From assembly GCA_951406725.2 (NCBI GenBank), contig OX597842.1, positions 27,466,001 through 27,530,000 of the forward strand: a stretch of DNA of 64,000 nucleotides, in the 5' to 3' direction. The notes beneath the pieces are model-generated. The model searched no databases. It was not told where the DNA came from and saw nothing but the letters and a program-made list of their open reading frames with translations. Source of the stretch: Octopus vulgaris (lineage: Eukaryota). Made by a program: the position numbers and the translations under genes. Each line of letters starts with the position of its first letter. Position 1 is the first letter of the stretch. Below, one piece after another: positions 3,921 to 43,443 of the stretch.

Positions 3921-3970
<50 letters not shown>

Positions 3971-6051: not shown

Positions 6052-6071
6052 GTAAGGAAATTACTTCTGCT

Positions 6072-12330: not shown

Positions 12331-12342
12331 ACTGCCTCCCTG

Positions 12343-13060
12343 TCAGGGGTTGAGAGAGAAGAACCTGTTTGTAGACCAGTCAACCCCGGGAAGGTTGAAG
12401 TCTTCCATCATTAAAATGTTGTCAGGTTGACACTGCTGAATGAAACACTTTATGCTGTTGAGGCATTCCTTGAAGCATGGTAGGGGCGTTTGGGGTGGTC
12501 TGTAGAGCCCAACTACTGTTAAGTTGTTGGTTTGACTGAATACAGCGACTGCTTCGCAGTATCCATTGGAAAATATGTTCATGGCTTCTGTTGAGAATGA
12601 ATCATGGACATAAATGGCAGTCCCACCCTTTCTTCTGCCAGCATGATCAGCACGAATGGTTTTGAAATTTTTAACTTTCACCTCGACTTCCAAGTGGAAG
12701 TCACTAAGGTGGGTTTCAGTGAGGACGAAGAAAGGGATGTGGTTTGGATGGGACTCGACCCAGTCCTCCAGGAATCTTATCTTCCATTTTTGTGTATTGG
12801 TGGAAGGGCTGATGCCTTGGGCATTAAGCAGAAATGTTGAGGCGAGAGTGGATGGTTTTAATTGTTTTGGTGATTTGTTTATTTGATTGCTTTTTAATGG
12901 CATGTGCAGTGGGGTAATAGTGGTGGATGGTGGTGGGTGATAGCTCGGATGTTTTTTCCAGTTCTTTTGCTAGATTCATTATAGCTAATAAAGAGGAAGA
13001 AGAGGTGGTTTCCTGTCTAGGGAACTGTAGGTGACTGTGGTTGTGGTTATTTTTATGTGA
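12343..13060 (-). mobile_element. LINE (CR1/L2/Jockey-group) apurinic-endonuclease N-terminal fragment
   Basis: LNAQGI, VLTETHL, RADHAGRRKGGTAIYV, VGLYRPP, DFNLPGVDW. Confidence 0.8.
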
Positions 13061-13979: not shown

Positions 13980-14084
13980 TAAAACGAATCGCGCCTTCCC
14001 CGGAACCAGCTTCATCAACCGCGTCGAAGAATTACAGTTTGCACATCACCAGCAACGAAGCAACAGAAAATACCGACGAAAACA

Positions 14085-14960
14085 ATGAATCTCCCGGAAC
14101 AAAACCCAGCGGCCAACATCGACATGGCATTCCAAGCGGCGATCTCGTTAAAAATTCCACCATTCTGGACCCACGACCCGACATTGTGGTTTCACCATAT
14201 AGAGGCACAGTTTGCCTCTCACAGAATATCGAGCGATGCGGCTCGACTTTCTCACGTTATCAGTTCTCTGTCACCAGAAATAACGAACGTGATACGCGAC
14301 CTTATCATGGCACCACCCGGTTCTGTTTCATATGAAGTTTTTAAAACTACGTTAATAAACAGAACCTCAGAATCCCAACAAAAAAGACTTCACCAGCTTC
14401 TGATATCGGAAGAATTGGGTGACAAAACGCCGTCCCAGCTTCTTCGGAGAATGAAACAGCTTCTCGGAGATGAGACGCTCCCAGAAAAAATCTTCAAGCA
14501 ACTTTTTCTCCAGCGTCTGCCCTCCAATACCCAGGTTGTTCTCGCGTCCACCAGAGAAAACACATCCCTTGAAGAACTGGCGGAGCTAGCTGACAAAATA
14601 GCCGAAGTACCGCACAGATATCCAACGGTATCGACGGTGACGCCAGCCGCTCCCAGTACCAATCCTTTCCGTGCACAAACCAGTTCTTCAGAGATTTCGG
14701 ATTTGCGTGCATTAATGACGCAGCAAGCTGCGCAAATACAAATTCTCACAGCCCAAATACAAGCCCTAAAGTTTAGTCCCCAGCGTCGAAGCACCAGCCG
14801 ATCTCGACGAGATGGCAGACGGTCTCGAAGCCCCAGTGCTACCCGAAACTCACATGACACGTGTTGGTACCACCGAACATTCGGAACACGGGCACAAAAA
14901 TGTACGGTGCCGTGCTCGTTTTCCTCACCCAGTTCGGGAAACGGCACAGCCAGGAATTGA
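14085..14960 (+). CDS. gag: Gypsy Gag
   Basis: [52 protein letters not shown]. Confidence 0.9.
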
Positions 14961-14998
14961 ACGCGACGGAAGTTCCTGGTTCGCACCCACACAGTCGC
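14936..14998 (+). promoter_or_regulatory. -1 programmed ribosomal frameshift signal (slippery heptamer plus H-type pseudoknot)
   Basis: G GGA AAC in gag phase, 6-nt spacer, stem 1 gccaggaat/gttcctggt, stem 2 gcgac/gtcgc; pol is in the -1 frame. Confidence 0.8.
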
Positions 14999-17900: not shown

Positions 17901-18101
17901 TGATCGTTTAAAAAAGCTTTCATCGAGGAGGACTTACATTCAGTCCCCTCTTTTCCTCAAACAGACTCGGCAACTCCAGCGAACATCACAGATTCTGCAC
18001 AACCCCGACACACCAAATCAGGAAGAACAGTTCGATGGCCAGCAAGGTTTGTGCAAGTTTTTCGGGTAAGTTCTGAACTCCTAACGTATCCATCTTCCTA
18101 A
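14942..18101 (+). CDS. pol: Gypsy Pol (protease, RT, RNase H, integrase) with two single-base frameshifts near 16022 and 17912
   Basis: [10 protein letters not shown]; YIDD; LLVDAS; HHCC motif, [23 protein letters not shown]; GPY; C-terminal [12 protein letters not shown] is recovered by adding one A at the A-run. Confidence 0.92.
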
Positions 18102-19385: not shown

Positions 19386-20377
19386 GTAAATTTATACATA
19401 TATATATATATATGGTGGGCTTCTTTCAGTTTCTGTCTATCAAATCCTCTCACAAGTCTTTGGTTAGCCTGAGGCTATAGTAGAAGACACTTGTCAAAGG
19501 TGCCACGCAGTGGGACTGAACCTAGAACCATGTGGTTGGTAAGCAAGCTACTTATCACACCCACTCCTGTGCCTATATATTTACTAATTATTCATTTTAT
19601 CATCGGATTTAAGTTTTGCTTAATGAAAGCTTATAGAATGTTGGTTATATTTATTTTACAGATATATTTACAATTTAAAATGACCCCCTTTTGCCTTCCC
19701 CGTAACCCTTAATATTTTCTCACCTCTTAATTCTTTACACCAGCCATTTTCAATGCTAGAATTTGTTAACATTTTGTTTGAGCCACCAAATTTAATTACA
19801 CAAGAATGTTAGGAAGCCTCGTGCAGAGTTTACAACTAATTTAATAAATAAGAAAGTTTCAGTTTCTATTTCAATAACGAGGAAATTAATTATGCTTAAA
19901 TAACGGGTAAATGTATGTGCTGCCCCTGGTAAATGATGGACTGATCTGTTGACCATCCACTTTTGTGTTTAAAAAGTCAGTCCCCCTTGTTAATGCTACG
20001 TAACCTTTCTAAATGATGGACTGATCTGAAGGGGGTCATTTAATCAGTTAGACATAATAGTCTTAAGATAATTGTGTGTGTTAATCCTTTTCTTACCAGA
20101 TTTCTGTTGAAATGCATTGCCTTTGTTTCAATAAATTTTGGAAATAGTAAAGAATTCAATGAAATAACCTCGTCCTTACTAAGCTAGTGTTTGGAATACA
20201 AGTTTATTTGAAGCCTTGATGGAAGGTTTTACTTTAGATCTCTTTAAAACAGGGAATTCATACAATAAAAACAAGGGTGGTTTTCAGCAGGTTGGGATCA
20301 AAAGGGTTCAGCCTTATTGATATTACTATCTTTTATTAAATACAAAAAGTATATGTTTTCTTGTTCATCTTTTGCAG

Positions 20378-20559
20378 CTGATGGATCAGGAACCAGCATC
20401 CCCACCTATGCCGTAGTCATCATTTCTGTACTTTGTCTTGTAGCCATCCTCATAATCTGCTGTGTCAGATTCAAATGTCCTCCTTACATTTGGTTCAGGA
20501 ACCGTGTCAACGAGTGGATATCTTATAATGAATACCAGCTTCCACCGGTTGAAGTATAA
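20378..20559 (+). CDS. Terminal exon 1: short stalk, transmembrane helix and cytoplasmic tail (..YAVVIISVLCLVAILIICCV RFK...EYQLPPVEV*)
   Basis: ttcatcttttgcag| phase-1 acceptor compatible with the Ig exon B donor; hydrophobic 20-mer followed by basic residues. Confidence 0.72.
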
Positions 20560-21911
20560 AAATGCTATGTTTTTTTATTTTTATTTTTATAGACTTTCAA
20601 TGATTGCATTAACATATTCTGTTGTGTCTGGGGAGAGTCATTTTCTTTTTGTGCCTTATGATGTAACACATTTGATGTAGCATATTTGGTTTCTACTATA
20701 TTCCTTCCATATTATATACACCTTCATCATCATCATTGGTTTAGCCTCATCTTTTCAAAAACCCTGCTCAAGTGGTGGGGGGAACAAACACAAAGACACA
20801 CACACACACACAGTTTCCACCTCAGAAAGATCACACTCCAGGCAGTTTCCTACTTGATGTGTGTTTATTGCCATACTGGGGCACTGCCTGGAAGAAATTT
20901 TTTGCTGTTGAAGCCTTGTACTTATTCTATTGATCTCTTTTGCGAAACTGCTAAGTTACAGGGACATAAACCCACCAACACCTGTTGTCAAGTAGTGAGG
21001 AGGGAGGACAAACAGACACAGACCCCTTCCCCCATACACACATATATCTGTGATTATAATTTAATACATTTTTATTATGGATATTCAGGTAATGCATGCA
21101 CCATGACACATAGTAACCACCCAGGGGCAATACCTGGGGCACATCTACACATGAATGCTCCAAAGACTTACCTCATGACTTTCACAAAAATCTATATTTT
21201 TTAAGGAAATTTTCTACAAATCCACTTCAGATGGTGTAGATTCTTTTTATACTGGAATTTGATGTGACAAAATTTTCTGCCAAAAAATGTGATTTTTTTC
21301 TGAAAGCTATTTCTAACAAGTCAAGAGACCACATAATAGTTATGTTTGTGTTAATCTCCATGGCAATAGCAATATGTGAACAATGGATGATTTCGATTGG
21401 CTAAAATTACTTAACTTTAAGTGCATGTAACTTTTTTATTATTTGTTTTTAGAAATAATGAGTGTGGTTTTCATTATCAGTATCCAAAACTACATCAGAA
21501 CTATATTTTTTTAAAAGTAATCAGGTGAAAATTTGACATATTGATACAGTTTTGTAAAGTAATGAATGCCATGAAATTCATTTTCACCGTAGATCAATAC
21601 ATAAACAGCTAATAGTATTTTAATTTTGCGAATTTTGGATAATTTTATGTAGGTGCCTGTTTCCATAACAACAAGCCAAGTTGCTTACCATGTGTTCTTT
21701 TTCTCACTTTTTAAAAGCTAGTGTTTGGAACACAAGTTTATTTGAAGTCTTGATGGAAGGTTTTATTTTAGATCGCTTTAAAACAGGGAATTTGTACAAT
21801 AAAAACAAAGGCAGTTTTGAGCAGGTTGGGATCAAAAGGGTTCAGCCTTATTAATATTACTATCTTTTATTAAATACAAAAAGTATATGTTTTCTTGTTC
21901 ATCTTTTGCAG

Positions 21912-22288
21912 ATGAGGGTGCCGGAAGCAGCAGATCAGCAAACGGATCAGGAAGCAGCAGATCAGCAAATGGATCTGGAACCAGCAGCGCAGCAAATGGA
22001 TCAGGAAGCAGCAGATCAGCAAATGGATCAGGAAGCAGATCAGCAAATGGATCAGGAATCAGCAAAGCAGTTAATGGATCAGGAACCAGCATCCCCACCT
22101 GCGCCGTAGTCATCATTTCTGTACTTGGTCTTGTAGCCATCCTTCTCTTAATCTTCTCTGTCATATTCAAGTGGCTTCTTTACATTTGGATCAGGAACTG
22201 TGTCACCTGCAGGATATCTCGTAATGAATACCAGAATCCACCGGTTGAAGCATACAAATGCTATGTTTTTTTATTTTTCTTCTTATAG
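21912..22288 (+). CDS. Terminal exon 2 (duplicate): six-repeat NGS stalk, TM helix and tail (..EYQNPPVEAYKCYVFLFFFL*)
   Basis: Same acceptor context ttcatcttttgcag|, phase 1; open frame through roughly 27-bp repeats; paralog of 20378-20559. Confidence 0.7.
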
Positions 22289-25324: not shown

Positions 25325-25966
25325 GGGAGTATATCCAAACTTATTACTTATTATATTATATTTAACTTTTGGTTAGTTAAAAAAAAAGGTTAAAAGTTTA
25401 AGAATTTAAAAATTTTAAATATAAATTAAAAATTTTTTAATTTTAAATTTTATATATATATATATTGTATATTATATTAATTATATTTATTTTTTGTTTT
25501 TTATGTTTTGGTTTATGTCTATCACTGTTTGAGTTGCCTAATAGTGGCTTTATCTCTAATTTATATATATATATATATTAATAAATGAAATAAAACATAT
25601 GCATATATATAAACATATATGTACGTACCTACCTCTACATGTACATATATACACGCATATATGAGTACAGGACACCAAAGGGACGTCGAACACAAAGAGA
25701 AACGGAAACATAGACACAAACCAAAGGAACTGGACATTTATTTAAAAACAGCAAATATATATATAAGGGGATGAAAACAATTTTATTCAAATTTCTTGGT
25801 ACTTCAAGTTTCAAAACATGACGCTAATCTTAGAAATTTCCAAGGGCTAACAATTAGCATCAAGCTTTGAAACTCGAAGTACAAAGGAAACTAAATGAAA
25901 CAAATTTGATCCACACATGTAACTCCCAATGAATGATTTGAGTGCCCTTCTTTTGTTTCTCCACTC

Positions 25967-25997
<31 letters not shown>

Positions 25998-26009
25998 ATA
26001 TATAAGGAA

Positions 26010-26455
26010 TTAAGATCTCATTACAGACCAAACTATAAACTCTTAGTAAAAGACAGTCTAAAAGCTTGAAAAAGCTATTAACAAAGGCAAGGTTTGGCCT
26101 TAGCAACAAAGACCAACCATTCACTGTGTCTATAGGCAATGATAACCGGTGTTGTACATGCCAATTAATTCATACTGGCCCATATATGAACACAAAAAAT
26201 GTGTTGTAGTGTCCCCAATGTATTGTAGTGTCCTCTCTGTCTAAACTCGTATGGTGACTAAAAAATAGTGCAGTTGAAACCAATGAACATGACCGTCACC
26301 AAAACCATATGAACCTGAAGATTGCATAAATGCAAGAAAGTATACTAGTCCAATAAGAATGGACAATTAATATTTCATTTGTTCGTTAAGAATGGACAAT
26401 TAATATTGTGTTTCATACCTTTTTACTGTTTTATTTTATATGATTATAAATAAAA
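26010..26455 (+). mobile_element. Penelope-like element 3' fragment (partly duplicated at 28168-28440)
   Basis: LSKRQSKSLKKLLTKARF...NRCCTCQLIHTG (linker Zn motif before GIY-YIG) followed by a hammerhead motif. Confidence 0.65.
26311..26351 (+). ncRNA. Minimal hammerhead ribozyme motif
   Basis: gaac-CUGAAGA-uugcau(aa)augcaa-GAAA-G-UAUA-CUA-gucc. Confidence 0.65.
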
Positions 26456-26546
26456 TGTGAAAAACAGAGTTGGAATTCCTTTGAGTAGTATATTCTTCTA
26501 TACACAATCATACATACCCCTTTGTATGTGTGTGTGTGTGTGTGTA

Positions 26547-26605
<59 letters not shown>

Positions 26606-26608
<3 letters not shown>

Positions 26609-26860
26609 CGTGACTGACCAGGCTATCAGATGTTGGTACACACCGCTGGTCACAGTGCGCTTCGCATTGTTTTCGCCTTCAAATGACAGGTTTATCACAA
26701 AATCGACATTCAAGAGAAAACATCCAGCTCAAGTTATGGCTTCGGGTGTTGTGGCTTCGGATGGAAAGAAAATTCCTATAAAATTCTACAAAGCTGATGA
26801 AAAGATCAATGTTAATACTTACTAAAAGACTCAGAGAAACCAGGTATTGACATGGCTTAA
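26606..26860 (+). mobile_element. Tc1/mariner terminus fused to an internal transposase fragment; fragment repeated at about 26972, 28680, 32940, 33785 and 34100
   Basis: Starts after a TA tract (caccgtgactgaccaggctatc); KHPAQVMASGVVASDGKKIP..FYKADEKINVNTY resembles the K-P-VMVWG region of maT/DD37D-type transposases. Confidence 0.72.
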
Positions 26861-27592
26861 TTTTATCCAAAATCCTCCAAAAATGCTCTCCGTATTGGTT
26901 GGCAAATATTTTGCAATAATAACATCCAAGAGATCAAAGGTGACATTGAAGATGTCAGAAACGGAATAAAAACACATCGCATTGTTTTAGCTTTCAAATG
27001 ACAGATTTATCACAAAATCGACATTCAAAACAAAACATCCAGCTCAAGTTATGGCTTCGGGTGTTGTGGCTTCCGATGGAAAGAAAATGCCTATAAAATT
27101 CTACAAAGCTGATGAAAAGATCAATGTTAATACTTACTAAAAGACTCAGAGATACCAGGTATTGACATGACTTAATTTTATCCCAAATCCTCCAAAGATG
27201 CTCTTTGTATTGGCTGGCAAATATTTTACTCTAATGACATCCAAGAAATCAAACGTGACATTGAAGATGTTACAAATGGAATAAAAACACATCCAGAAGC
27301 AATAACATTTTCTGCTTTAGAGTGACGCAAAATGTGACCTTGTTGCAGGTCAAAGAAATGATGCCACGAAACATTAAACAAAGGAACTCAAACAATCCAA
27401 GCGGTTTGTGTTTAAGTGTGATTCATTATATAAGCTCTTTGTCGGATCATTTTAGCTTCCTTCTACTTCTAATGCTTTGCTAAAAGCAAAAGAGAAGTGA
27501 AATATAGACAAGCAACAACCGGCGAGTGCAGTTCTGTTGTTTATCATTTACGAATTATTCACTTCTGCAGCTGGATAAGATAAGGAGAACTG

Positions 27593-27760
27593 CGGATCCA
27601 TGAAATAAGCTGCCAGATGAGATAGTGAAGATGCCGACGACCGCTCGGTTCAAAGTCTCCCTTGACCAGAAATGGCCTGAACTCTTTGTATGACCACCCT
27701 CCCTGTCCCACTACATGGCCTTGCTTTTGCTTTCTGAACCAATAAAAATTGAATTGAATC
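27593..27760 (+). mobile_element. CR1/L2 LINE 3'-end fragment
   Basis: ADP*NKLPDEIVKMPTTARFKVSLDQKW resembles the WNxLP...FKxxLD C-terminus. Confidence 0.6.
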
Positions 27761-28308
27761 AAAGCAATCTAAAGATGCCCAGTGAAATATAGACAAGCAA
27801 CAACCGGCGAGTGTGGTTCTAGTGTTTATCATTTATGAATTATGCAGGTTTGATAAGATTAGGAAGAAAATGGAGGAAGAGAACTTTAATTATGTTAAAG
27901 AATTTCTCCAAAAATATCCAAATAAAATAAGTTGTTCTTTGTATTTGCTGCTAAATATTTAACAATACTACCTTAAACTTCAGAAATGCTATTAAAAGCA
28001 GGAGCTGAACAATTCTGTCCTGGTGCGGACATAAAGTCGCTTTGGACAATACGAAAGGAACGCATCTTCTTAGACCCACGTTCAGTACTTCTTGACTGAT
28101 CCTTCATTTTTGGCAGAGTAGCTATATTCTTGGGGCCAATGTCCAACATACAATGCTTCCACGAATTTCATACTGGCCCATATATGAACACAAAAAATGT
28201 GTTGTAGTGTCCCCAATGTATTGTAGTGTCCTCTCTGTCTAAACTCGTATGGTGAATAAAAAATAGTGCAGTTGAAACCAATGAACATGACCGTTACCAA
28301 AACCATAT

Positions 28309-28349
28309 GAACCTGAAGATTGCATAAATGCAAGAAAGTATACTAGTCC
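28309..28349 (+). ncRNA. Minimal hammerhead ribozyme motif (duplicate of 26311-26351)
   Basis: Identical core, stem II and palindromic stem III. Confidence 0.62.
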
Positions 28350-30573
28350 AATAAGAATGGACAATTAATATTTCATTTGTTCGTTAAGAATAGACAATTA
28401 ATATTGCGTTTCATACCTTTTTACTGTTTTATTTTATAAGATTATACAGAAAACTTAGGAAGGGGACTAATTATATCAAAAGATTTATCAAAAGAAATCC
28501 AGATAAAGTAAAACCTTCTGGGTGTTGGCTTTTCAAAGTTTTTGAACAACATTGAAAATGTCGCAAATTTTATCCAAAATCCTCCAAAGATGCTCTCTGT
28601 ATTGGTTGGCAAATATTTTGCAATAATAACATCCAAGAGATCAAAGGTGACATTGAAGATGTCAGAAACGGAATAAAAACACATCGCATTGTTTTAGCCT
28701 TCAAATGACAGATTTATCACAAAATCGACATTCAAAACAAAACATCCAGCTCAAGTTATGGCTTCGGGTGTTGTGGCTTCCGATGGAAAGAAAATTCCTA
28801 TAAAATTCTACAAAGCTGATGAAAAGATCAATGTTAATACTTACTAAAAGACTCAGAGAAACCAGGTATTGACATGGCTTAATTTTATCCAAAATCCTCC
28901 AAAAATGCTCTCTGTATTGGTTGGCAAATATTTTGCTCTAATAAAATCATAGAAATCAAACGTGACATTGAAGATGTAACAAATGGAATAAAAACACATC
29001 CAGAAGCAATAAGTGGTTCTGCTTTGAAGTGTTGCAAAATGTGACCATGACACAGGTTCAGGAAATGATGCCACTACACTTTATACAAGACAATTGTGTC
29101 CCCAAAGTCCATCCCCTCCTCACCGTGGTGGGGACGCTGGCAACGGGTAGTGTCAGAGCTCTGCCGTCGGGAACTTCGGTTCCTGGTAGAGCCACCAAAG
29201 GCAGATTGGTCTGACACCGAGTGGTATTAGGGCCACAACCCTGCAGATGGGGCTCTAGTGAAAATCAAAGTGGTTCTGTTTTAAGTACGACCCGTTATAT
29301 AAGTTCTTCGTCTGATCATTTTAGCTTCTTTCTATTTCTAGCATCTTTCGTTGACAAGAAATGGAGTTTGATAAGATTGTGAAAGATGCTTAGGAGAAAT
29401 GAAACGAAACCATCAAACCCTTTGCAAAAAGAAAATGAGAAGTGAAATATAGACAAGCAACAACCGGCGAGTGTGATTTTATTGTTTCTCATTTAAGAAT
29501 TATTCACTTCTGCAGTTGGATAAGATAATGAGAATTGAGGAGGGAGAATTTAATTATCTATCTCTTTTCATTTTCTATAATTGCTAAGTTTATCAAAATG
29601 CACTTAAATTACACACATGTGCCACTATTGGTGCGTGGAAAGTGTCCGGTATGAAACCATTCTGTGGCACAAAAAAAAGGTTAGTGATCACTGCATTAGA
29701 CAAAACTCAGGTTTCCAGTATAAATGCCATTTTAAGTGAGATTTTAAAAACCATCACCTTCTTTGTATTATTGTTTACCTCTTTTTATAAGGGTTTTCTT
29801 CAAAATCCTATCACTATCAGCTCTTAGCATGTTCCACTCAAAAGATGGAACAGTGAAATATAGACAAGCAACAACCGGCGAGTGTGGTTCTAGTGTTTAT
29901 CATTTATGAATTATGCAGGTTTGATAAGATTAGGAAGAAAATTGAGGAAGAGAACTTTAATTATGTTAAAGAATTTCTCCAAAAATATCCAAATAAAATA
30001 AGTTGTTCTTTGTATTTGCTGCTAAATATTTAACAATACTACCTTAAACTTCAGAAATGCTATTAAAAGCAGGAGCTGAACAATTCTGTCCTGGTGCGGA
30101 CATAAAGTCGCTTTGGACAATACGAAAGGAACGCATCTTCTTAGACCCACGTTCAGTACTTCTTGACTGATCCTTCATTTTTGGCAGAGTTGCCATGTTC
30201 TTGGTGCAAAAAGTCCAACATACAATGCTTCCACGAATTTCATAAAAAGCATTAGAAAGTATCGACTTGTTTAATTAAGCAAGCAACTATATGCACAAGT
30301 CCATTAGGAGTAAAACAAAGAAAAGTCACTGAAGCATTGAAAATATCGCAAAATTTAGCCCAAACCATCCAAATGATAGAAGATGCTGTTTGTATTGTTT
30401 GGCAGATATTTAGCAGAAACGTTAAGGGAAATCAAAGAACGTGACATTGAAGGGGTCACAAATGGAATGAAAACACATCCAGAAGCAATAAGTGGTTCTG
30501 CTTTGGAGTGTTGCAAAATGTGACCATGACACAGGTCCAGGAAATGATGCCACTACACTTTATACAAGACAAT

Positions 30574-31756
30574 TGTGTCCCCAAAGTCCATCCCCTCCTC
30601 ACCGTGGTGGGGACGCTGGCAACGGGTAGTGTCAGAGCTCTGCTGTCCGGAACCTCGATTCCTGGTAGAGCCACCCAAGGCAGATTGGTCTGACACCGAG
30701 TGGTATTAGGGCCACAACCCGGGACGCTAGCAATGGGTAGTGTCAGAACTATGCCGTCGGGAACTTCGGTTCATGGTAGGGCCACCCAAGGCGGATTGGT
30801 CTGACACCGAGTGGTATTAGGGCCACAACCCAGGACGCTAGCAATGGGTAGTATAAGAGCTATGCCGTCGGGAACTTCGGTTCCTGGTAGGGCCACCCAA
30901 GGCAGATTGGTCTGACACCGAGTGGTATTAGGGCCACAACCCGGGACGCTAGCAATGGGTAGTGTCAAAACTATGCCATCGGGAACTTCGGTTCATGGTA
31001 GGGCCACCCAAGGCAGATTGGTCTGACACCGAGTGGTATTAGGGCCACAACCCAGGACGCTAGCAATGGGTAGTGTAAGAGCTATGCCGTCGGGAACTTC
31101 GGTTCCTGGTAGGGCCACCCAAGGCAGATTGGTCTGACACCGAGTGGTATTAGGGCCACAACCCGGGACGCTAGCAATGGGTACTGTCAGAGCTATGCCG
31201 TCGGGAACTTCGGTTCCTGGTAGGGGCCACCCAAAGCAGATTGGTCTGACACCGAGTGGTATTAGGGCCACAACCCGGGACGCTAGCAATGGGTAGTGTC
31301 AGAGCTATGCCGTTGGGAACTTCGGTTCCTGGTAGGGCCACCCAAGGCATTTTGGTTTGACACCAAGTGGTATTAAGGTCACAACCCGGCAGACGGGGCT
31401 CTGGTGAAAATCCTCAGAGTGTCTGCTTCGGCAACCGGTGGCTCCTCGGTCGTTCTGTCCCTGCGTCTGCGGACAATCTGTGGCAAACAGGATGTTCCTA
31501 CATGTGGGATTGTTGGGGACCGCTTGTGAAATCAACATATTCCCACAAAACTTCTTCCGGAGGACCTCTCCATGCTCACGGGATCGCAGGTGGTCAGCGT
31601 GCGCCGATGGAACCGTGACTGGCTCACTATCTCCAGTGAATTGGCGCAGGACCGTCGTGCGTGGGGTGCCATGGTTCAAGATGCCTCAAGGGTGGTAGAA
31701 GAAGCCGAATCAACCGGCCCCGGATGAATGTCACCACAAGTACAAATACAAGTAAG
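30574..31756 (+). mobile_element. Internally deleted RTE-clade element whose 5' UTR segment is amplified as about 7 x 111-bp tandem repeats
   Basis: 13-bp TSD tatacaagacaat (30561-30573 and 31757-31769); 3' end LAQDRRAWGAMV...*; (caagta)-like tail; unit resembles the Bov-A/BovB-type 5' motif GAGCYATGCCG..GTAGGGCCACCCAAG. Confidence 0.78.
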
Positions 31757-31910
31757 TATACAAGACAATCAAAAGAAAATAAGTTCTATTTGAAGGGTGA
31801 ACGATTTCAGAAGTTTTTTTTGCCAGACTATTTGAGTTTCCCTGTATTTCTAGCAGATTTCGTTGCAAAGAACTACAAGAAGGAAAGACTGATGTTGTGA
31901 AAAATATTTT

Positions 31911-31952
31911 GGTGGACAAGATGTTGTTTTAGAAATTGACGAATCCAAGTTT
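31911..31952 (+). mobile_element. 42-bp Merlin (IS1016/ISXO2-like) transposase motif fragment
   Basis: GGQDVVLEIDESKF. Confidence 0.62.
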
Positions 31953-34900
31953 ATGCATTTGATGCCACAAATCTTTACACGATGAGAAAATTTCTTCGAA
32001 ATAGGCCAAGTAAAAGAAAGTTCTTTCTTGCATTGGCGTCTCAAACTTAAGACAACACAACAAATGGAGATTGATAAACATTATAGATTGGTGCAGTCAA
32101 AAATATTTTAATAGTGTGAAGTGGGGAATGAAATTAAACCATGAAATGCTTTGTAAAGAAAATGAGAAGTGAAATATAGACCAGCAACAACCGGGGAGTG
32201 TGGTTCTATTCTTAATGTACTTGGATAAGATTATAAAGAAAATTAAGCAAGGTGACTTAAAATATGAGAAAATTTCTTCGAAATAGGCCAAGTAAAAGAA
32301 AGTTCTTTCTTGCATTGGTGTCTCAAACTTAAGACAACACAAGAAATGGAGGTTGTTGAAGTTGTTCTGCTTTATGTTGTCACAAAATATGGCCAAGTGA
32401 CAGGTCAAGGAAATGATGCCACAAATCTTTACACAAGACAATCCAAATAAAAAAGGGCTGCTCTATTGTAAGAGTGACCCATTTTAGAAGTTTTTCTTTG
32501 GACAATTTTGGTTTCCTTCTATTTCTAGCATCTTTTCCTCGCAAAGAAACGGAGGTTGATAACATTGCATATTGATGTTGTGAAAAATGTTTTAGGGGTC
32601 ATGGAAGGAAACCATTAAAGGACTTGTGAAACAAAACAGAAGTGAAATATAGGCAAGCAACAAGCGGCAAGTGTGCTTCTATCATTTATGAATTATTTAC
32701 ATCTGTAGTTTAATAAGATTATACAGAAAACTTAGGAAGGGGACTAATTATATCAAAACATTTATCAAAAGAAATCCAGATAAAGTATTGGCTTCTCAAA
32801 GTTGATGAACATTGAAAATGTCGCAAATTTTATCCAAAATCCTCCAAAGATGCTCTCTGTATTGGTTGGCAAATATTTTGCAATAATAACATCAATGAAA
32901 TCAAAGGAGACATTGAAGATGTCAGAAACGGAATAAAAACACATCGCATTGTTTTAGCCTTCAAATGACAGATTTATCACAAAATCGACATTCAAAAGAA
33001 AACATCCAGCTCAAGTTATGGCTTCGGGTGTTGTGGCTTCGGATGGAAAGAAAATGCCTATAAAATTCTACAAAGCTGATGAAAAGATCAATGTTAATAT
33101 TTACTAAAAGACTCAGAGATACCAGGTATTGACATGGCTTAATTTTATCCAAAATCCTCCAAAGATGCTCTTTGTATTGGCTGACAAATATTTTGCTCTA
33201 ATAAAATCAAAGAAATCAAACGTGACATTGAAGATGTAACAAATGGAATAAAAACACATCCAGAAGCACTAAGTGGTTCTGCTTTAGAGTGTCGCAAAAT
33301 GTGACCTTGTTGCAGGTCAAAGAAATGACGCCACGAAACATTAAACAAAGGAACTCAAACAATCCAAGCGGTTTGTGTTTAAGTGTGATTCATTATATAA
33401 GCTCTTTGTCGGACCATTTTAGCTTCTTTCTACTTCTAATGCTCTGCAAAAAGCAAAAGAGAAGTGAAATATAGACAAGCAACAAGCGGCAAGTGTGCTT
33501 TAATTCTATCATTTATGAATCCTTCACTTCTGTAGTTTGATAAGATTATACAGAAAACTTAGGAAGGGGACTAATTATATCAAAAGATTTATCAAAAGAA
33601 ATCCAGATAAAGTAAAACCTTCTGGGTGTTGGCTTTTCAAAGTTTTTGAACAACATTGAAAATGTCGCAAATTTTATCCAAAATCCTCCAAAGATGCTCT
33701 CTGTATTGGTTGGCAAATATTTTGCAATAATAACATCCAAGAGATCAAAGGTGACATTGAAGATGTCAGAAACAGAATAAAAACACATCGCATTGTTTTA
33801 GCCTTCAAATGACAGATTTATCACAAAATCGACATTCAAAACAAAACATCCAGCTCTAGTTATGGCTTCGGGTGTTGTGGCTTCCGATGGAAAGAAAATG
33901 CCTATAAAATTCTACAAAGCTGATGAAAAGATCAATGTTAATACTTACTAAAAGACTCAGAGAAACCAGGTATTGCCATGACTTAATTTTATCTAAAATC
34001 CTCCAAAGATGCTCTCTGTATTGGTTGGCAAATATTTTGCAATAATAACATCCAAGAGATAAAAGGTGACATTGAAGATGTCAGAAACGGAATAAAAACA
34101 CATTGCATTGTTTTAGCTTTCAAATGACAGATTTATCACAAAATCGACATTCAAAACAAAACATCCAGCTCAAGTTATGGCTTCGGGTGTTGTGGCTTCC
34201 GATGGAAAGAAAATTCCTATAAAATTCTACAAAGCTGATGAAAAGATCAATGTTAATACTTACTAAAAGACTCAGAGATACCAGGTATTGCCATGACTTA
34301 ATTTTATCCAAAATCCTCCAAAAATGCTCTCCGTATTGGTTGGCAAATATTTTGCTCTAATAAAATCAATGAAATCAAATGTGACATTGAAGATGTTACA
34401 AATGGAATAAAAACACATCCAGAAGCAATAACATTTTCTGCTTTAGAGTGTCGCAAAATGTGACCTTGTCGCAGGTCAAAGAAATGATGCCACGAAACAT
34501 TAAACAAAGGAACTCAAACAATCCAAGCAGTTTGTGTTTAAGTGTGATTCATTATATAAGCTCTTTGTCGGATCATTTTAGCTTCCTTCTACTTCTAATG
34601 CTTTTGCAAAAAGCAAAAGAGAAGTGAAATATAGACAAGCAGCAAGCGGCAAGTGTGCTTCTATCATTTATGAATCCTTCACTTCTGTAGTTTGATAAGA
34701 TTATACGGAAAACTGAGGAAGGGCACTTTATTCATAACAAAAGATTTATCAAAAACCTGATAGACACAAAATGTTCTCAGTATTGGCTTCTAAACGCCGA
34801 GCAACAGCATCACATTAAGTCAAGATGACATTGAAGATGTTTCAAAATTTATCGATAGACATCTAGATAAATCTATTTGTCTTTATTACCAATGCAAAAC

Positions 34901-34959
34901 GTCTGCTCATTGGTCAACAAACGGATGTTGTATACGCTTTATAAAAAAGCAACTGGAAA

Positions 34960-35520
34960 ACACATCACCACGACGGATTCGGTGGAGGTGCGGGCAGTCA
35001 AGTTTAAGGTTGACCCCCTCCAGAAGTAACCAAAAGGAGGACAGCGGTTTATAGAACACTGTCCATAAGCTGTAAAAAGATTGAGATAGCTTTGGAAGAA
35101 GCTATAGAGAAATGTCTGGAAGAAGTAAGGAGTGTTGCAACATTCTACACTCACTCCATTGTGATGCTGAGGTCGCGAGAATGGGTATGCCTGCCGACCT
35201 ACTGTGGCAGAAGAGTCACGAGAATTAAGATAGGCAGGGTACCACCAGAAATTGAAGAAGTGTGGCTGCTGGCAGCAGTGATGTACAGAACCCACAAAGA
35301 TGTAAAGATATTAAAAGTGGCAAGAACAAAGAAAACGAATTGCTGGGGTTATGGCCTGGAAATGGTCATCCAGGCCACCCAGCAAGACCTGAATGAAATA
35401 GCAGAAGAGGTGTTGCTGCCGGAAGACAGAGTTCATAGTGGTGGTAGAAGGGTGACCTCCGACATGCTACCGCTGTGGAGAAAAGGGGCACATCAAAATA
35501 AAGTGCCCCCGGAAAAACAA
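34960..35520 (+). mobile_element. LINE ORF1 (gag-like, CCHC knuckle) fragment
   Basis: PTYCGRRVTRIKIGRVPPEI..WL; shifted frame VVEG*PPTCYRCGEKGHIKIKCP (35465-35506). Confidence 0.65.
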
Positions 35521-35848
35521 TGAAACCAGCATGAACAAAGTGAGCGTAGCAAAATGAAAAACACAGCGTAGGTGGAGTGTATGGAAGATACAGAAGAGGG
35601 ATTTACAGAAGGGCCCAAAAGAACAAGAAAGGAAATAGATACAGCCCTGAAGAGTCCAAGCATTTACTGCAAAGACAGACAGAAAGGTGATTATACATGT
35701 GCAGCAAATGCTGTAAGTGTGAGTGGCCACCTGCACCCATAGAAGTGACACAAGTTGGTGCTCCAGCAAGAAATTGGAAAAGTCTCATCTGCTTGGAGTA
35801 GCACCCTTTTCCTCCAAACTGGGGATGAGGAAAAGAGGTCAAATAACT

Positions 35849-35905
35849 GACATCACAACGGGGTCTAGCGACTCTGCTCAGATAATGGACTTGGCTGCAA
35901 TTTAT
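35849..35905 (+). mobile_element. 57-bp Penelope RT motif fragment
   Basis: DITTGSSDSAQIMDLAAIY versus DVPMGSSDSAQIADLVGIY of the PLE at about 11277. Confidence 0.68.
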
Positions 35906-36290
35906 AATGTAAGCATATCCATGTTTATGCCTGGAAAATATAGAATCATATAATGAGGAAGATGAAATTACGAATCAAATCAAGAGCTAAAAGCACTTAC
36001 TCTTATTCCTTATAATGGAGGTCCTATCAGGACGTCTCCAGATGGCATCGTTCCTTATGAAGCTCATGAGTGAGAGTTTATCAAACATGTCTCAGAGTCT
36101 CATCAAATAAAACCAGATGAGAGAAGTTAGAAGCTTCTCATTGAAATATGAAGACGAAGAAATTACAAACTAAATCAAGAGCCAAACACTGTTATTCTTA
36201 TTGTTCTTGTAGTCGATAACGGGTCCGTCAGACTCAAAACAAATGACAGATAACGTAAGATATGTTGGCTGCCCATATCATTATATGTCC

Positions 36291-36356
36291 CCCACATTAT
36301 GAATGCATGATCCGACAGTGTGGTTTATACATTCTAGAGACACTGTTTTTGTCTCT
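36291..36356 (+). mobile_element. Gypsy gag N-terminal fragment
   Basis: PTL*MHDPTVWFIH-LETLF versus [19 protein letters not shown] of the element at about 14157. Confidence 0.6.
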
Positions 36357-37128
36357 GCGTACAAAGTTAGGCAGCACCTGCACATCTTATGTATTCACTG
36401 CCCTTCCATAGGATGTCCTGTTGGAGATCCAGGACTTGATTACATCTCTGGATGGCACTGTTCCTTATGGAACTCCCCAAGTGAGAGTTTATCAAGCCTA
36501 ACTCAGAGTCTCATCAAATAAAAGCAGGAGATGAGAGCAGAGGAAGTAGTTTGATGTTTGTCATTAAAATATGAAGAAGAGGAAATCACGAACTAAATCA
36601 GTTGTTCTAATTGTACTGGTAGTTGATAATGGGTCCATCAGACTCAAAACAAATGACAGATAACGTAAGATATACTGGCTGCCCATATGTTTGTCATTGA
36701 AATATGAAGAAGAGGAAATCACGAACCAAGTCAACAGCTAAAAATGCAAAGTGTCATTGTTCTTGTAGCTGATAATGGTTCCATCAGACTCAAATCAAAA
36801 GAGATGACTAAGATAAAACAAGATCAACAGAGGAAATAAAAAATAATCCTCCTATTGTCGCTTCAACGGCCAGGAAGAGCCTCATGGAAAGACAGGAAAC
36901 GGGTGGACCAGAGCAGTATTGAACCCATGGATTCCATGATCGGGTGAGAAAAATGGTTGCACATGCAATTGAAGCGAGGACTATAGTTACTCCAAAGGAC
37001 ACGTGTTGTAAGTTCAATAACAAAATATACCTCCAGGAAGATTGGTGCAGCCATGGGGCCCCAGCCAGCTCGTAATGGCATGGTGGGACGGTGGCCTGAA
37101 AGAAAATATGTCAAGTGAGACATTTTAT

Positions 37129-37957
37129 GAGGGTGTACAGTTATATACTGACGAATGGTCCAGTTATGTTGAACAGTTCCCACACCATAAAAAAATTGGG
37201 TGCCTGCTTCCATGCATCTCACAGAGATACGGAACCCTCAGGACCGATTCTTGGTGGTGGTGATGAGATTTTTTCTTGGGGATGGGGGGGTCACTTGTCT
37301 ATCCAACTGGATGCCTCCTCGGGGCCAGTTCTGCGGCCCACACACTTGTTTGAAGGACACCCTGAAGAGGCTGTAAATAAACAAACTCAACTCGGAGGCC
37401 TTGGTCGGACAAAAGAAGAACTTCAACAGGATGGGGGGGGGGGGGCCACTTGTCTGTCCAACTGGATGCCTCCTCAGGGCCAGTTCTGTGGCCCACACAC
37501 TTGTTTGAAGGACACCCTGAAGGGGCTGTAAATAAACAAACTCAACTCGGAGGCCTTGGTCGGACAAAAGAAGAATTTCAACAGGATGGGGGGGGCCACT
37601 TGTCTGTCCAACTGGATGCCTCCTCGGGGCAAGTTCTGTGGCCCACACACTTGTTTGAAGGACACCCTGAAGGGGCTGTAAATAAACAAACTCAACTCGG
37701 AGGCCTTGGTCGGACAAAAGAAGAATTTCAACAGGATGGGGGGGGGCCACTTGTCTGTCCAACTGGATGCCTCCTCGGGGCCAGTTCTGTGGCCCACACA
37801 TTTGTTTGAAGGACACCCTGAAGGGGCTGTAAATAAACAAACTCAACTCGGAGGCCTTGGTCGGACAAAAGAAGAACTTCAACAGAATGGACTGGCAAAC
37901 CTGGATTGCAGAGGGTTACAACCACACCACCACTGCAACCACCAAGAGTTTTACTTC
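37129..37957 (+). mobile_element. Merlin transposase fragments split by a 4 x ~150-bp tandem repeat (37285-37885)
   Basis: EGVQLYTDEWSSY (37129-37167); EGYNHTT/CNHQEFY (about 37910-37957) corresponding to GYxHxTVNH; repeat unit reads GGHLSVQLDAS and QLGGLGRT. Confidence 0.6.
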
Positions 37958-38597
37958 AGTATGGGACCCAACAGGAAAATGTCTCGTCAGGTACAACAAT
38001 TTTTACTGATAAATGAGCCAGTTACAAAGGGCCTTTCACCAAACTTGGCGCCTACATTCACCAAACAGTGAGTCATGCCAAGAATTTCTTGGTTCCAGAC
38101 AATGAAGCATGCACCAGCCGTATTTAGACCTATTCATCTCATGAAAACATTAATTGATGAAATTAATTATTCACAATGCCGACAGCTCCATAAAGTGCCA
38201 ATCTCTCAAAGTGGAAGATTTAGGATTGAGACTGCCGGTGCCTGGTTGTACTCAAGAAGACCCATACCTCACAGCAGAATTGCTAAGACCAAGTGGTGTA
38301 AAGCATTCATGGAAGTCAGGAGGCAGTGTTTGCAGTGGCGCATAAACAAACCTGTCTGGTCCTACATAAAAGTGCCAGTGTGGTGTCGCATAAAAAGCGC
38401 CCATGCTACCAAGATCCACCAACAAAACTGATCTAGTGTGGACCTACAATCAGATACCCATCTAAGTGGTGTAAAGCATTCATGGAAGTCAGGAGGCAGT
38501 GTTTGCAGTGGCGCATAAACAAACCTGTGTGGTCCTACATAAAAGTGCCAGTGTGGTGTCGCATAAAAAGCGGCCCATGCTACCAAGATCCACCAAC

Positions 38598-38752
38598 AAA
38601 ACTGATCTAGCGTGGACCGACAATCAGATACCCATCTAACCTGCTGATGTTCCAAACACAGCAATTGCCACGCCCTTCAGACTGAGTTTTTGTGGATGCC
38701 CTTCAGCTTCCAGAATGCAGCACAGACATTTCAATGCTTTATAGACACCGTC
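38598..38752 (+). mobile_element. Gypsy RT fragment (first part also duplicated at about 38424-38464)
   Basis: KTDLAWTDNQIPI*PADVPNTAIATPFR-EFLWMPFSFQNAAQTFQCFIDTV versus [53 protein letters not shown]. Confidence 0.8.
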
Positions 38753-38933
38753 AAAAATTGTCTCATTAAATAAATGGTTGTTTTTGCATAATAAGAATTT
38801 TTATAGAACCTAATAATCTAGGACGGTAATAAATGATGCCTGTAAACAAAAATAGCCTTTGTTTCTTTACTACCCTCAAGGGGCTAAACAGAGAGGGGAC
38901 AGACAAGGACAAACGGATTAAATTGATTATATC

Positions 38934-39947
38934 GACCCCAGTGTGTAACTGGTACTTAATTTAACGACCCCAGTGAGAAACTGGTAGTTAATTTATTGAC
39001 ACCAGTGTGTAACTGGTACTTAATTTATCGACCCCAGTGTGAAACTGGTAGTCAATTTATTGACACCAGTGCATAACTGGTACTTAATTTAACGACCCCA
39101 GTGAGAAACTGGTAGTTAATTTATTGACACCAGTGCGTAACTGGTACTTAATTTAACGACCCCAGTGAGAAACTGGTAGTTAATTTATTGACACCAGTGC
39201 GTAACTGGTACTTAATTTAACGACCCCAGTGAGAAACTGGTAGTCAATTTATTGACACCAGTGCGTAACTGGTACTTAATTTATCGACCCCAGTGAGAAA
39301 CTGGTAGTTAATTTATTGACACCAGTGTGTAACTGGTACTTAATTTATCGACCCCAGTGAGAAACTGGTAGTCAATTTATTGACACCAGTGCGTAACTGG
39401 TACTTAATTTAACGACCCCAGTGAGAAACTGGTAGTTAATTTATTGACACCAGTGTGTAACTGGTACTTAATTTAACGACCCCAGTGAGAAACTGGTAGT
39501 CAATTTATTGACACCAGTGCGTAACTGGTACTTAATTTATCGACCCCAGTGAGAAACTGGTAGTCAATTTATTGACACCAGTGCGTAACTGGTACCTAAT
39601 TTATCGACCCCAGTGAGAAACTGGTAGTCAATTTATTGACACCAGTGCGTAACTGGTACTTAATTTATCGACCCCAGTGAGAAACTGGTAGTTAATTTAT
39701 TGACACCAGTGTGTAACTGGTACTTAATTTATCGACCCCAGTGTGAAACTGGTAGTCAATTTATTGACACCAGTGCGTAACTGGTACTTATAAATGAGCC
39801 AGTTAATTTATCGACCCCAGTGAGAAACTGGTAGTCAATTTATTGACACCAGTGCGTAACTGGTACTTAATTTATCGACCCCAGTGAGAAACTGGTAGTC
39901 AATTTATTGACACCAGTGTGTAACTGGTACGTAATTTATCGACCCCA
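38934..39947. repeat. 32-bp minisatellite (alternating A/B monomers, 64-bp dimer, about 31 monomers) expanded inside a SINE (about 38870-40060)
   Basis: gaccccagtgagaaactggtagttaatttatt and gacaccagtgcgtaactggtacttaatttatc. Confidence 0.93.
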
Positions 39948-40152
39948 AAAGGATGAAAGGCAAAGTCGACCTCGGCAGAATTTGAACTCAGAACATAACG
40001 GCAGACAAAATACAGCTACGCATTTCACCCGGTGTGCTAATGCTTCTGCCAGCTCGACGTCCTATTGTTTCAATTCATACCATTGGTGGATTAGATTTAT
40101 TTTGGTACAATACATGAAGACAGGTATTATCATCCCGCAGTGGAAAATATCT

Positions 40153-41031
40153 GCGTCCCCAAAGTCCATCCCCTCCTCACCGTAGTGGGGATGCTGGCAA
40201 TGGGCAGTGTCAGAGCTATGCTATCGGGGAACTTCGGTTCCTGGTAGGGCCACAACCCGGGATGCTAGCAATGGGTAGTGTCAGAGCTATGCCGTCGGGA
40301 ACTTCGGTTCCTGGTAGGGCCACCCGAGGCGGATTTGTCTGACACCGTGTGGTATTAGGGCCACAACCCGGGACGCTAGCAATGGGCAGTGTCAGAGCTA
40401 TGCTGTCGGGGAACTTCGGTTCCTGGTAGGGCCAGCTATGCTGTCGGGGAACCGGTTCCTGGTAGGGCCACAACCCGGGATGCTAGCAATGGGTAGTGTC
40501 AGAGCTATGCCGTCGGGAACATCGGTTCCTGGTAGGGCCACCCGAAGCGGATTTGTCTGACACCGAGTGGTATTAGGGCCACAACCCAGGACGCTAGCAA
40601 TGGGCAGTGTCAGAGCTATGCCGTCGGGAACTTCGGTTCCTGGTAGGGCCACCCGAGGCGGATTTGTCTGACACCGAGTGGTATTAGGGCCACAACCCGG
40701 GACGCTAGCAATGAGCAGTGTCAGAGCTATGCCGTCGGGAACATCGGTTCCTGGTAGGGCCACCCGAAGCGGATTTGTCTGACACCGAGTCGTATTAGGG
40801 CCACAACCCGGGACGCTAGCAATGGGCAGTGTCAGAGCTATGCCGTCGGGAACATCGGTTCCTGGTAGGGCCACCCGAAGCGGATTTGTCTGACACCGAG
40901 TCGTATTAGGGCCACAACCCGGGACGCTAGCAATGGGTAGTGTAAGAGCTATGCCGTCGGGAACTTCGGTTCCTGGTAGGGCCACCCGAGGTGGATTTGT
41001 CTGACACTGAATGGTATTAGGGCCACAACCC
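40153..41031 (+). repeat. Second array of the 111-bp RTE 5' UTR repeat (about 8 full or partial units)
   Basis: Same start (gcgtccccaaagtccatcccctcctcaccg) and unit as 30574-31390; a single copy also at 29096-29266. Confidence 0.9.
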
Positions 41032-41565
41032 GGCCCTAATTAGATGAATGAGACACATCACGAAAACGACTGCAAATAGATATTCAAGACGACGACACGG
41101 AAAGCAAAGACCCTGCAATAACAGAAATACTTAAAGATATACATCAATGGAAATAGTAGTTGTGATACCGATCGTGGCCGTTTGCCAACCTCGTCTGGCA
41201 CCTGTGCTGGTGGCACGTAAAAAGCACCCACTACACTCTCGGAGTGGTTGGCGTTAGGAAGGGCATCCAGCTGTAGAAACACTGCCAGATCAGACTGGGC
41301 CCCTGGTGCAGCCCTTCTGGCTTCCCAGACCCCAGTTGAACCGTCCAACCCATGCTAGCATGGAAAACGGACCTTAAACGATGATGATGATGATGATGAT
41401 GATACCTACATCATTTGAAGATGATTGTCATGAACTCCATGGTAGTACACAAGTATCCCCTTTTTTATAGCCCCCCCCCCCCCCACATGTAGACTAGATC
41501 CAAATTAAGAAGGACAACACTGCATAAAAGATCAACACAGGAATTTGGCACTGATTATTTTTATG

Positions 41566-42240
41566 GGATCTTTTCCGTTTGACCGGCAGTTTTTTAAAAT
41601 AATTTCCACGTAACTAAACACTTTTAAACTTCGTATACTGGTAGAATGTGTTTATAAAACATCTTTTTCTCTTGGCTTTATTGAGAAAAGTCTATAGTTT
41701 GTAACATATTTGTTGTTTTTTGTTTCTTCAATTTCTGCAATTTCAGCCAATCAATGACGTCTATTGAGGTAAAAAAAAAACATTCTGTGCCGTATGAATA
41801 TGTCCCTCGTTTAAGAAATAGGATCTTTTCTGTTTGAACGGCAGATTTTTAAAATAATTTCCACGTAACTAAACACTTTTAAACTTCGTATACTGGTAGA
41901 ATGTGTTTATAAAACATCTTTTTCTCTTGGCTTTATTGAAAAAATTCTATAGTTTGTTTGATATTTGTTGTTTTTTTTTCTTCAATTTCTGCAATTTCAA
42001 CCAATCAATCACATCTGTTGATGTAAAAAATCATTCTGCACCGTATGAATATGTCCCTCATTTAAGAAATAGGATCTTTGCGGTTTGACCGGCAGTTTTT
42101 TAAATTAATTTCCACGTAACTAAACATTTTTAAACTTCGTATTCTGGTAGAATGTGTTTATAAAACATCATTTTTTTCTTGGCTTTATTGAGAAAATTCT
42201 ATAGTTTGTAAGATATTTCGTCTGAAAATCCAAGCATTTT
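41566..42240. mobile_element. Tandem partial copies (about 250 bp) of the Merlin-type MITE; similar arrays at 47490-48610 and 56360-57040
   Basis: Repeated TIR ggatcttttc(g/t)gtttga(a/c)cggcag followed by the same internal sequence. Confidence 0.8.
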
Positions 42241-43443
42241 GGCAATTTTAACCAATCGATTACCTCCATTGAACTAAAATCATTTGCTGCATCTAAAACT
42301 GAAACAACATCCTGTAACTAACCCTAACCCTAATTTTTTTTTCTTAATTGTTAATTGTTTAAATTATTTGAGGGTTAGTGACAGGATGTTGTCTCAGTTT
42401 TAGACGCAGCAAATGATTTTAGCTCAAAAGAGAGCACAGGATTTAGTATTTCTAAATTGAATTTTTCCCTGTAAGTTAGGAATAATGTTCCCTCAAATTA
42501 TTATTATTATTATATATATATATAGAGAGAGAGAAACAAATACTGGCACATTTTTTTGAGGGGATATCAACTCATTTGTCAGCATATTTCTGTTGAAATA
42601 CATTGCCACAGTTTCAACTAATTAAAAAAAAAATGTAATTGTGAAAAATAATTTTGTCATTATTAAGCTGGTGTAATTAACAAATTAGTTTGAATTTTGG
42701 GCAATTTAAAAAAAAAAAAACTTGAAAAAAAAAACAATGAATTTGTATCGTAGAACCAAGATGGGGATGTAGGTATCAAAATTAATTAAACCAAACTGTT
42801 AATTAATAGAGTTAAAATTTTCATTAATGACTTAACTTTGGAAATCGTTATTGGACTAATCAACTTTTGTTATATTTAACTCCTTTGTTTTAGTCATTTG
42901 TCTGCGGCCATGCTGGAGCACCGCCTTTAAGCGAGCACATCGACCCCGGGACTTATTCTTTGTAAGCCCAGTACTTATTCTATCGGTCACTTTTGCCGAA
43001 CCGCTAAGTCACGGGGACGAAAACACACCAGCATCGGTTGTCAAGTGATGTTGCGGGGACAAACAGACACACAAACATATACACGCACATACATATATAT
43101 GACGGGCTTCTTTCAGTTTCCATCTACCAAATCCACTCACAAGGCTTTGGTCGGCCCAAGGGTATAGTAGAAGACACTCGCTCAAGGTGTCACGCAGTGG
43201 GACTGAACCCGGAACCATGTGGTTCGTAAGCAAGCTACTTAACACACAGCCACTCCTGCACCTATATGAGTCTGTTAATTAAAGTCAACTTGAGTTTACT
43301 TATGTTAACTTCAATTTAATTGAAGTTAATGGATTTAATAGTTTTGGTACTTTTATAAAGGTGTTTTTAGGTGGGGTTTTTTTGAGCAAAAACGTATTTT
43401 TCGTTTTTTCTATAATATAAATGACGTTAACAATTTATTGATA

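Follow-up and report, generated by a model that had tools for sequence, protein, structure and literature searches.

A one-way mosaic of transposon fragments and decayed ankyrin-gene exons in Octopus vulgaris as a candidate uni-strand cluster of PIWI-interacting RNAs

We analysed a window of 64,000 nucleotides of the Octopus vulgaris genome (C29:27,466,001-27,530,000, C29 being contig OX597842.1, in a genome of 2.80 Gb and 227 contigs) and, within it, a mosaic of ~15 kb that represents a candidate source locus of PIWI-interacting RNAs (piRNAs). The mosaic is composed of decayed copies of an ankyrin-gene exon and of pieces of seven transposon groups, the protein-coding remnants of which all run one way. 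By hand annotation, transposon pieces account for 8,034 of its 15,098 bp (~53%), and self-comparison reveals nested local tandem duplication inside it. A sequence-only reading of the same DNA had described a library of transposon fragments, every one of them sense on the + strand; it overlooked both the amplified exon backbone and the short interspersed elements (SINEs) inside that face the other way. These two SINEs (26606-26686 and 38860-40054) are exceptions to the one-way layout, and the right edge proposed by that reading, 38839, stops right before the second of them. Since this SINE interrupts a Tc1 end, which continues at 40082, the mosaic extends to ~41.1 kb.

Genome searches used seven pieces of the mosaic as queries, with the best 23-40 candidates scored per query, and the polarity of fragments was read from the reading frames of the dispersed copies fetched. 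The features are listed below by window position and strand.

26003-41100, strand undefined: whole mosaic, candidate piRNA-source locus, ~15 kb, defined by self-comparison, microsatellite, strand and exon-copy results
26003-26500, +: 3' part of a Penelope element with internal deletion, 91% and 79-83% identical to dispersed copies; sense polarity confirmed for 26003-26198; part duplicated at 28167-28455
26606-26686, -: 3' tail of a SINE derived from transfer RNA (tRNA), opposite polarity; 28-bp remnants at 26975, 28682, 32942 and 33786
26705-26860, +: Tc1/mariner transposase fragment (DDE_3), one insertion in six local copies (also 26996, 28703, 32963, 33807 and 34122)
27255-34871, +: ankyrin-family first coding exon, 19 decayed tandem copies or part-copies with flanks, splice donors degenerate
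27482-34675, strand undefined: one arm of a dispersed inverted repeat resembling a miniature inverted-repeat transposable element (MITE), eight copies duplicated with the exon unit (27482, 27781, 29412, 29840, 32141, 32629, 33448 and 34594)
27591-27759, +: 3' end of a CR1-type long interspersed element (LINE), 95% identical to dispersed copies
29095-29266 and 30574-31765, + (label and polarity presumed): RTE-like non-autonomous high-copy element, the second part with a 111-bp x7 expansion
29561-29707, polarity undefined: end of a dispersed repeat, 77% identity
31909-31957, +: Merlin (ISXO2-like) fragment with the catalytic motif; this family has another piece at 30216-30282
34997-35660, +: LINE ORF1 fragment with CCHC zinc knuckle (Pfam zf-CCHC, E 3e-6), ~80% identical to dispersed copies
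35807-35905, +: Penelope reverse transcriptase (RT) fragment, weak (E 0.008)
36275-36470, +: gypsy gag fragment, broken; DNA match over 36275-36355 at 69% (pairwise E 2.6e-5)
36837-37057, +: second Penelope-like RT fragment, 70-75% identical to dispersed copies; family label from motifs, none from Pfam
37284-37890, strand undefined: 150-bp x4 tandem repeat, from self-comparison
37846-38142, +: Merlin C-terminal fragment, from dispersed copies and profile
38222-38640, +: RTE-type LINE 3' tail carrying a 175-bp local duplication
38597-38756, +: gypsy RT fragment, 79% identity
38755-38870 and 40082-40153, +: 3' end of a second Tc1 family, split by a SINE
38860-40054, -: tRNA-derived SINE with 64-bp array expansion, opposite polarity
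40152-41033, +: further RTE-like copy with 111-bp x7 expansion, from self-comparison
26610-38850, strand undefined: stretch under unspliced contigs of four putative RNA runs (four studies), from coverage bins

The fragments that the sequence-only reading had named as Penelope 3' end, CR1 3' end, LINE ORF1 knuckle, Penelope RT, gypsy gag and gypsy RT were all recovered in sense on the + strand, the second Penelope-like RT being additional. Its six Tc1/mariner copies were correctly identified and oriented but descend from one insertion that was duplicated locally; likewise, the RTE pieces at 29096 and 30574 belong to a high-copy repeat but are linked by local tandem duplication, and we presume their RTE-like label and polarity (29095-31765) from a motif and a short-repeat tail. 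Merlin motifs stand at 31909-31957 and 37846-38142, whereas a Merlin profile run over 756 tiles did not find the one placed at 37129. A Pfam search of 194 stop-free peptides (100 on +, 94 on -) returned the zinc knuckle as its sole match. The segment 35950-36830 holds three to four copies of one unit at 77% identity between diverged copies, and a first-look search found nothing in the rest of the genome that matches the DNA of 35660-36830; what looked by eye like an actin motif in this latter stretch found no Pfam support and was dropped. Helitron capture was also set aside, as element ends were not recognised by eye and the copies are not dispersed as a unit; no further test was made.

To quantify strand bias, we searched 54 transposon reading frames by tblastn against 254 kb (the mosaic at 26.0-41.1 kb and 239 kb of flank) and merged the hits. 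The library was partly collected from relatives of the mosaic fragments, which favours detection inside the mosaic and neither of the strands. All 12 protein-level hits in the mosaic, corresponding to 9 independent insertions, lie on the + strand, compared with 18 on + and 25 on - among 43 in the flanks, where the longest same-strand run is 6. This agrees with the one-way layout and the two-stranded neighbourhood described by the sequence-only reading, and the comparison with the flanks that it had proposed gives, for 9/9 independent hits, a binomial p of 0.004 and a Fisher p of 0.0018, values that are optimistic because the borders were first picked by eye. The microsatellite-free interval 26604-42496 provides an independent boundary and contains nearly the same fragments. 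The bias spans Penelope, Tc1, CR1, Merlin and LINE ORF1, so that DNA transposons (Tc1, Merlin) share in it, and Gypsy pieces contribute <400 of the 15,098 bp. From 95% in CR1, identity to dispersed copies falls to 69-75% in gag and Penelope RT, a spread indicating that the pieces were added piecemeal over a long time.

The DNA between the fragments matched an intact exon with a start codon and a GT donor at C27:36.374 Mb, 3.3 kb past which lies an ankyrin-repeat exon (Pfam Ank_4, E 4e-13). A protein search found 17 intact copies of this exon among 24 matches (14 on C29). A profile built from intact exons only gave 16 hits in 27255-34910, all on +; a second round that included these first hits gave 19 copies in 27255-34871 with degenerate donors (weaker hits E up to 0.2) and, elsewhere in 444 kb, three intact exons and a sister locus only. 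The exon copies retain intron flanks and were therefore duplicated as DNA, with the MITE-like arm embedded in the duplicated unit. A functional ankyrin gene with alternative first exons was considered and rejected, given the degenerate donors and 0/13 intron-type joints among contigs. The ankyrin-repeat gene family is itself expanded, with at least 17 intact first coding exons across C29:12.9-30.3 Mb and also on C27 and C10; we found no description of an ankyrin expansion in Octopus vulgaris in the literature searched. Between 27.396 and 27.61 Mb we detected no ankyrin-repeat exon motif, the only ones belonging to a gene on the minus strand at 27.612-27.624 Mb. MIB2, suggested by a resemblance, was rejected as exon source after a search for Mind-bomb SH3_15, the 18 matches of which fall on C26 and C13 and none near the loci (16 of them form an exon cluster at C26:0.73-2.54 Mb); we therefore call the family ankyrin-repeat only. 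Another protein search, with a family exon as query, was crowded by vertebrate ankyrin-2 and gave no name for it.

The sister mosaic lies 1.85 Mb away at C29:29,343,900-29,352,500, with a backbone ~70-85% identical to that in the window and 20 exon copies on the minus strand. Its transposon pieces (LINE ORF1, RTE, mariner) gave no DNA match to the pieces found in the window mosaic, and its 5/5 protein hits (~3 independent) run in the same direction as its exon copies, with 14 on + and 8 on - in its flanks and a longest same-strand run there of 4/22. Two pieces of the window mosaic, of 1 kb and 0.2 kb, have also been copied to C29:27.328 and 26.425 Mb; these are 96-97% identical and occupy the same site of two segmental duplicates, beside an internal CR1 fragment and near exons that look SRCR-like by eye.

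Both mosaics carry further sequence marks. Microsatellites occupy 0/14,491 bp of the window mosaic versus 6.2% and 4.8% of its flanks, and 0.4% of the sister versus 7.3% and 5.6%; in either region the longest stretch free of microsatellites contains or overlaps the mosaic, and for the window mosaic this stretch is the longest in 254 kb. The transposon-sense strand is A-rich in both. AATAAA occurs in 26610-38850 27 times on + and 4 times on -, counts inflated by duplication and A-skew. Together with the strand counts, these data bear on the possibility that the mosaic is a transposon graveyard in which chance produced a bias that local copies and post-hoc borders then inflated. The six Tc1 and three RTE-like copies are indeed duplicates, two SINEs are reversed and the borders were first chosen by eye; however, 9/9 hits are left once duplicates are collapsed, same-strand runs in the flanks reach only 6/43 and 4/22, the sister repeats the pattern and the absence of microsatellites independently marks the same interval. 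We regard chance as very unlikely.

We then looked for transcripts in 24 listed sequencing runs, the RNA nature of which is a guess throughout, 0/24 being on record as RNA. The stretch 31400-38850 is present in 20 of them. Sixteen of these, from five studies, are putatively RNA, with contig sets of 46-105 million letters that contain 50-79% of its words; three large runs labelled as three organisms contain 44-58%, and four runs with the same label contain next to none, which proves nothing. Four of the 16 putative RNA runs covered 30, 30, 29 and 30 of 30 bins of 26610-38850, in contigs of up to 1,646 nt, with 0/13 joints that need an intron. Their contig sets comprise 45-104 million letters each versus a genome of 2,800 million bases. 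As these sets amount to 2-4% of genome size and yet span nearly all of the 12 kb, we interpret them as probable transcriptomes. Along eight single-copy contigs, depth drops from left to right in two of the four runs (rho -0.83, -0.95) and shows no significant slope in the other two (rho -0.31, -0.43). One run shows a 173-nt joint with CT..AC ends at 38290-38464, which falls on a tandem duplication and was attributed to a copy difference rather than an intron. Contig differences of the A>G and T>C types were balanced and gave no strand signal from RNA editing. Loose ends of run X1 match the sister locus.

Unspliced cover of this kind would also arise if the mosaic were a long non-coding exon or 3' untranslated region belonging to a minus-strand transcript that is not processed into piRNAs and from which insertions in RNA sense were purged for their polyadenylation or splice signals. 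The missing microsatellites and the few minus-strand AATAAA suit any long exon as well, and ~105 kb further right there is an ankyrin gene on the minus strand. Internal fragments of 49-300 bp, however, carry few such signals and yet are one-way in two loci. Filters that purge signals usually produce a partial bias in LINEs and long terminal repeat (LTR) elements and little in DNA transposons. We consider this explanation improbable.

Transcription from the + strand offers another account of the polarity. The mosaic begins 3.7 kb downstream of a + strand gene with immunoglobulin (Ig)-like and transmembrane exons at 3.6-22.3 kb (Ig label by eye); read-through from it, or a decayed ankyrin pseudogene, could have provided an RNA into which reverse-transcriptase template switching or RNA-templated repair brought fragments of transposon RNAs in sense orientation; polarity would then record the capture route and not silencing. 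Depth drops away from this gene in two runs, many pieces are internal rather than 3' ends, and the host exon runs in the same sense as the transposons. Against it, the exon copies keep their intron flanks and were thus copied as DNA, fragment ages differ widely, a SINE interrupts a Tc1 end, 27 AATAAA lie on +, and the sister, around which 50 kb were examined and showed no Ig-transmembrane exon, repeats the polarity. This route, too, appears unlikely to us.

The reading we favour, with a probability of roughly 60%, is that the locus is a uni-strand piRNA cluster whose RNA comes from the minus strand, similar to those of the slug Arion and not of flamenco type. A polarity that has persisted across retrotransposons and DNA transposons and in two loci is most simply accounted for by selection for antisense content in a piRNA precursor. 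The uni-strand cluster proposed by the sequence-only reading hence remains the best one, given strand bias, sister locus and unspliced contig cover from putative RNA runs, while its flamenco-like character does not, the locus being short and not Gypsy-driven.

Several observations weigh against the piRNA-cluster reading. (i) When the two mosaic SINEs are included, the tally is 13/15 at best (p 0.007). The sister's two SINEs are again opposite to its transposon fragments, so that 4/4 tRNA-SINE insertions of both mosaics face away from the protein-coding fragments, unlike SINE families in the flanks, which are balanced in orientation. The favoured reading leaves these SINEs unexplained, and their number is too small to exclude chance. 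(ii) A C2H2 zinc-finger exon on + adjoins the sister mosaic, antisense to its transposons, and the sister bias could therefore stem from a host gene; an ankyrin gene lies 12 kb beyond this exon. (iii) The covering runs are only putatively RNA, and contigs cannot show strand. The depth slope fits the 3' bias of a minus RNA ending near 26 kb and equally + strand read-through or alternative polyadenylation from the Ig-transmembrane gene. A promoter was not located. (iv) Old fragments match poorly: 0/194 28-mers of the Penelope RT and 4/144 of Merlin lie within 2 mismatches of fetched dispersed copies.

At the same threshold, the counts are 142/142 for CR1, 334/462 for the RTE-like element, 73/129 for Tc1 and 93/169 for Penelope. 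By complementarity, CR1, RTE-like, Tc1 and Penelope 3', which are the younger fragments, might still be able to direct silencing, something that is mostly beyond the oldest fragments and the ankyrin copies. Only 22/7,723 28-mers of the locus match the 17 intact exons with at most 4 mismatches (control strand 0), so that present-day regulation of the ankyrin family by the locus is unlikely.

If the locus is indeed such a piRNA cluster, its history may have run as follows. A piece of an ankyrin gene would have been duplicated and have lost its coding function; the dead exon piece would then have multiplied in tandem and divided to give two sister loci. Each of these would retain transposon pieces antisense to its RNA and grow by local duplication. 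The minus strand would be transcribed as one long unspliced RNA, to be cut into antisense piRNAs that silence matching transposons. More speculatively, and in our view doubtfully, the sister clusters would have been born from a dead piece of the expanding ankyrin family, with antisense piRNAs from the amplified exon first restraining the family as it spread along the same chromosome and the antisense RNA then trapping transposons independently in each sister. If true, the pair would be a replicated record of a uni-strand cluster that started from a host-gene duplicate.

The remainder of the window contains other features. The Ig-transmembrane gene belongs to a tandem family of small genes on + that combine Ig-like and transmembrane exons (window exons 3651-3926, 5799-6080, 20359-20556 and 21911-22288), with paralogues at C29:27.396-27.466 Mb in which Ig and transmembrane exons are duplicated; the exons have no Pfam match at E 1e-4. 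An intron of this gene holds a Gypsy-type LTR retrotransposon at 13983-18069 with long gag and pol frames (protease, RT, RNase H, integrase), pol being in two frames. At 10437-12353, a Penelope-like element with an open frame of 638 aa on + lies next to a LINE endonuclease frame on the minus strand. Two young satellites lie at 49326-54159 (63 bp x 77, 97% matches) and 61913-64000 (121 bp x at least 17, 98% matches). Left of the mosaic, a hairpin at 25775-25905 is a palindromic dispersed repeat (fold z -9.7 on minus versus -7.1); it was rejected as strand evidence or as a microRNA in view of dispersed copies at 79% and G-U pairs of 5 versus 2, and its 8 Rfam hits were all sub-threshold.

Uni-strand clusters antisense to transposons are already known in slugs, and the class is not new. 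Most clusters of Arion vulgaris are uni-stranded, and in one example piRNAs come from the minus strand where transposon fragments are densely packed on the plus strand (PMC11615739), and Deroceras laeve has 170 piRNA clusters, with a unidirectional example (PMC12506671). These molluscs share with the octopus mosaic, a putative piRNA source, dense transposon fragments on one strand; an amplified host exon as backbone is not described for the slugs in the available parts of these two papers. In cephalopods, piRNAs have been reported in arm tissue of O. bimaculoides, where arm tips were examined (PMC12479628). Clusters of Lymnaea stagnalis are ~59% transposon, close to the ~53% of the octopus mosaic, and enriched in DNA transposons; there and in Crassostrea gigas young elements are favoured, unlike in octopus, where half of the fragments are old (69-80% identity) (PMC6128900).

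Drosophila flamenco and flam-like clusters similarly hold one-orientation transposon remnants over a long unspliced region, yet their strand bias is driven only by Gypsy, and clusters <35 kb were set aside in the study concerned (PMC10643416); the octopus mosaic measures 15 kb and carries seven groups including DNA transposons and Penelope, with <400 bp of Gypsy. Neither a Gypsy-driven, LTR-rich bias nor large size was found at the octopus locus, the flanks of which are of mixed orientation. Mammalian read-through clusters (piC-DoGs), which carry antisense transposons (PMC11615739), resemble the mosaic as a transposon-dense region right downstream of a gene; the octopus transposons are sense to the upstream + gene, opposite to the arrangement in piC-DoGs. 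Read-through may instead come from the ankyrin gene on the minus strand 105 kb away. Pachytene clusters can bear pseudogenes, and the octopus likeness lies in antisense gene remnants in a possible precursor, although its remnant is a DNA-duplicated exon amplified 19 times and not a processed pseudogene.

In Creative Commons articles of PMC and in bioRxiv, supplementary cluster tables lying outside this coverage, we found no description of a cephalopod uni-strand cluster or of a cluster based on an ankyrin exon. New piRNA clusters arise through duplication or activated insertions (PMC9114089). Octopus genomes are rich in transposons, and two exact loci are now available for small-RNA comparison. 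What varies here relative to the known class is the amplified host-exon backbone and the sister locus: with a common backbone, different transposons and the same polarity, the pair constitutes a natural replicate for the study of how such clusters originate and how their orientation is kept up.

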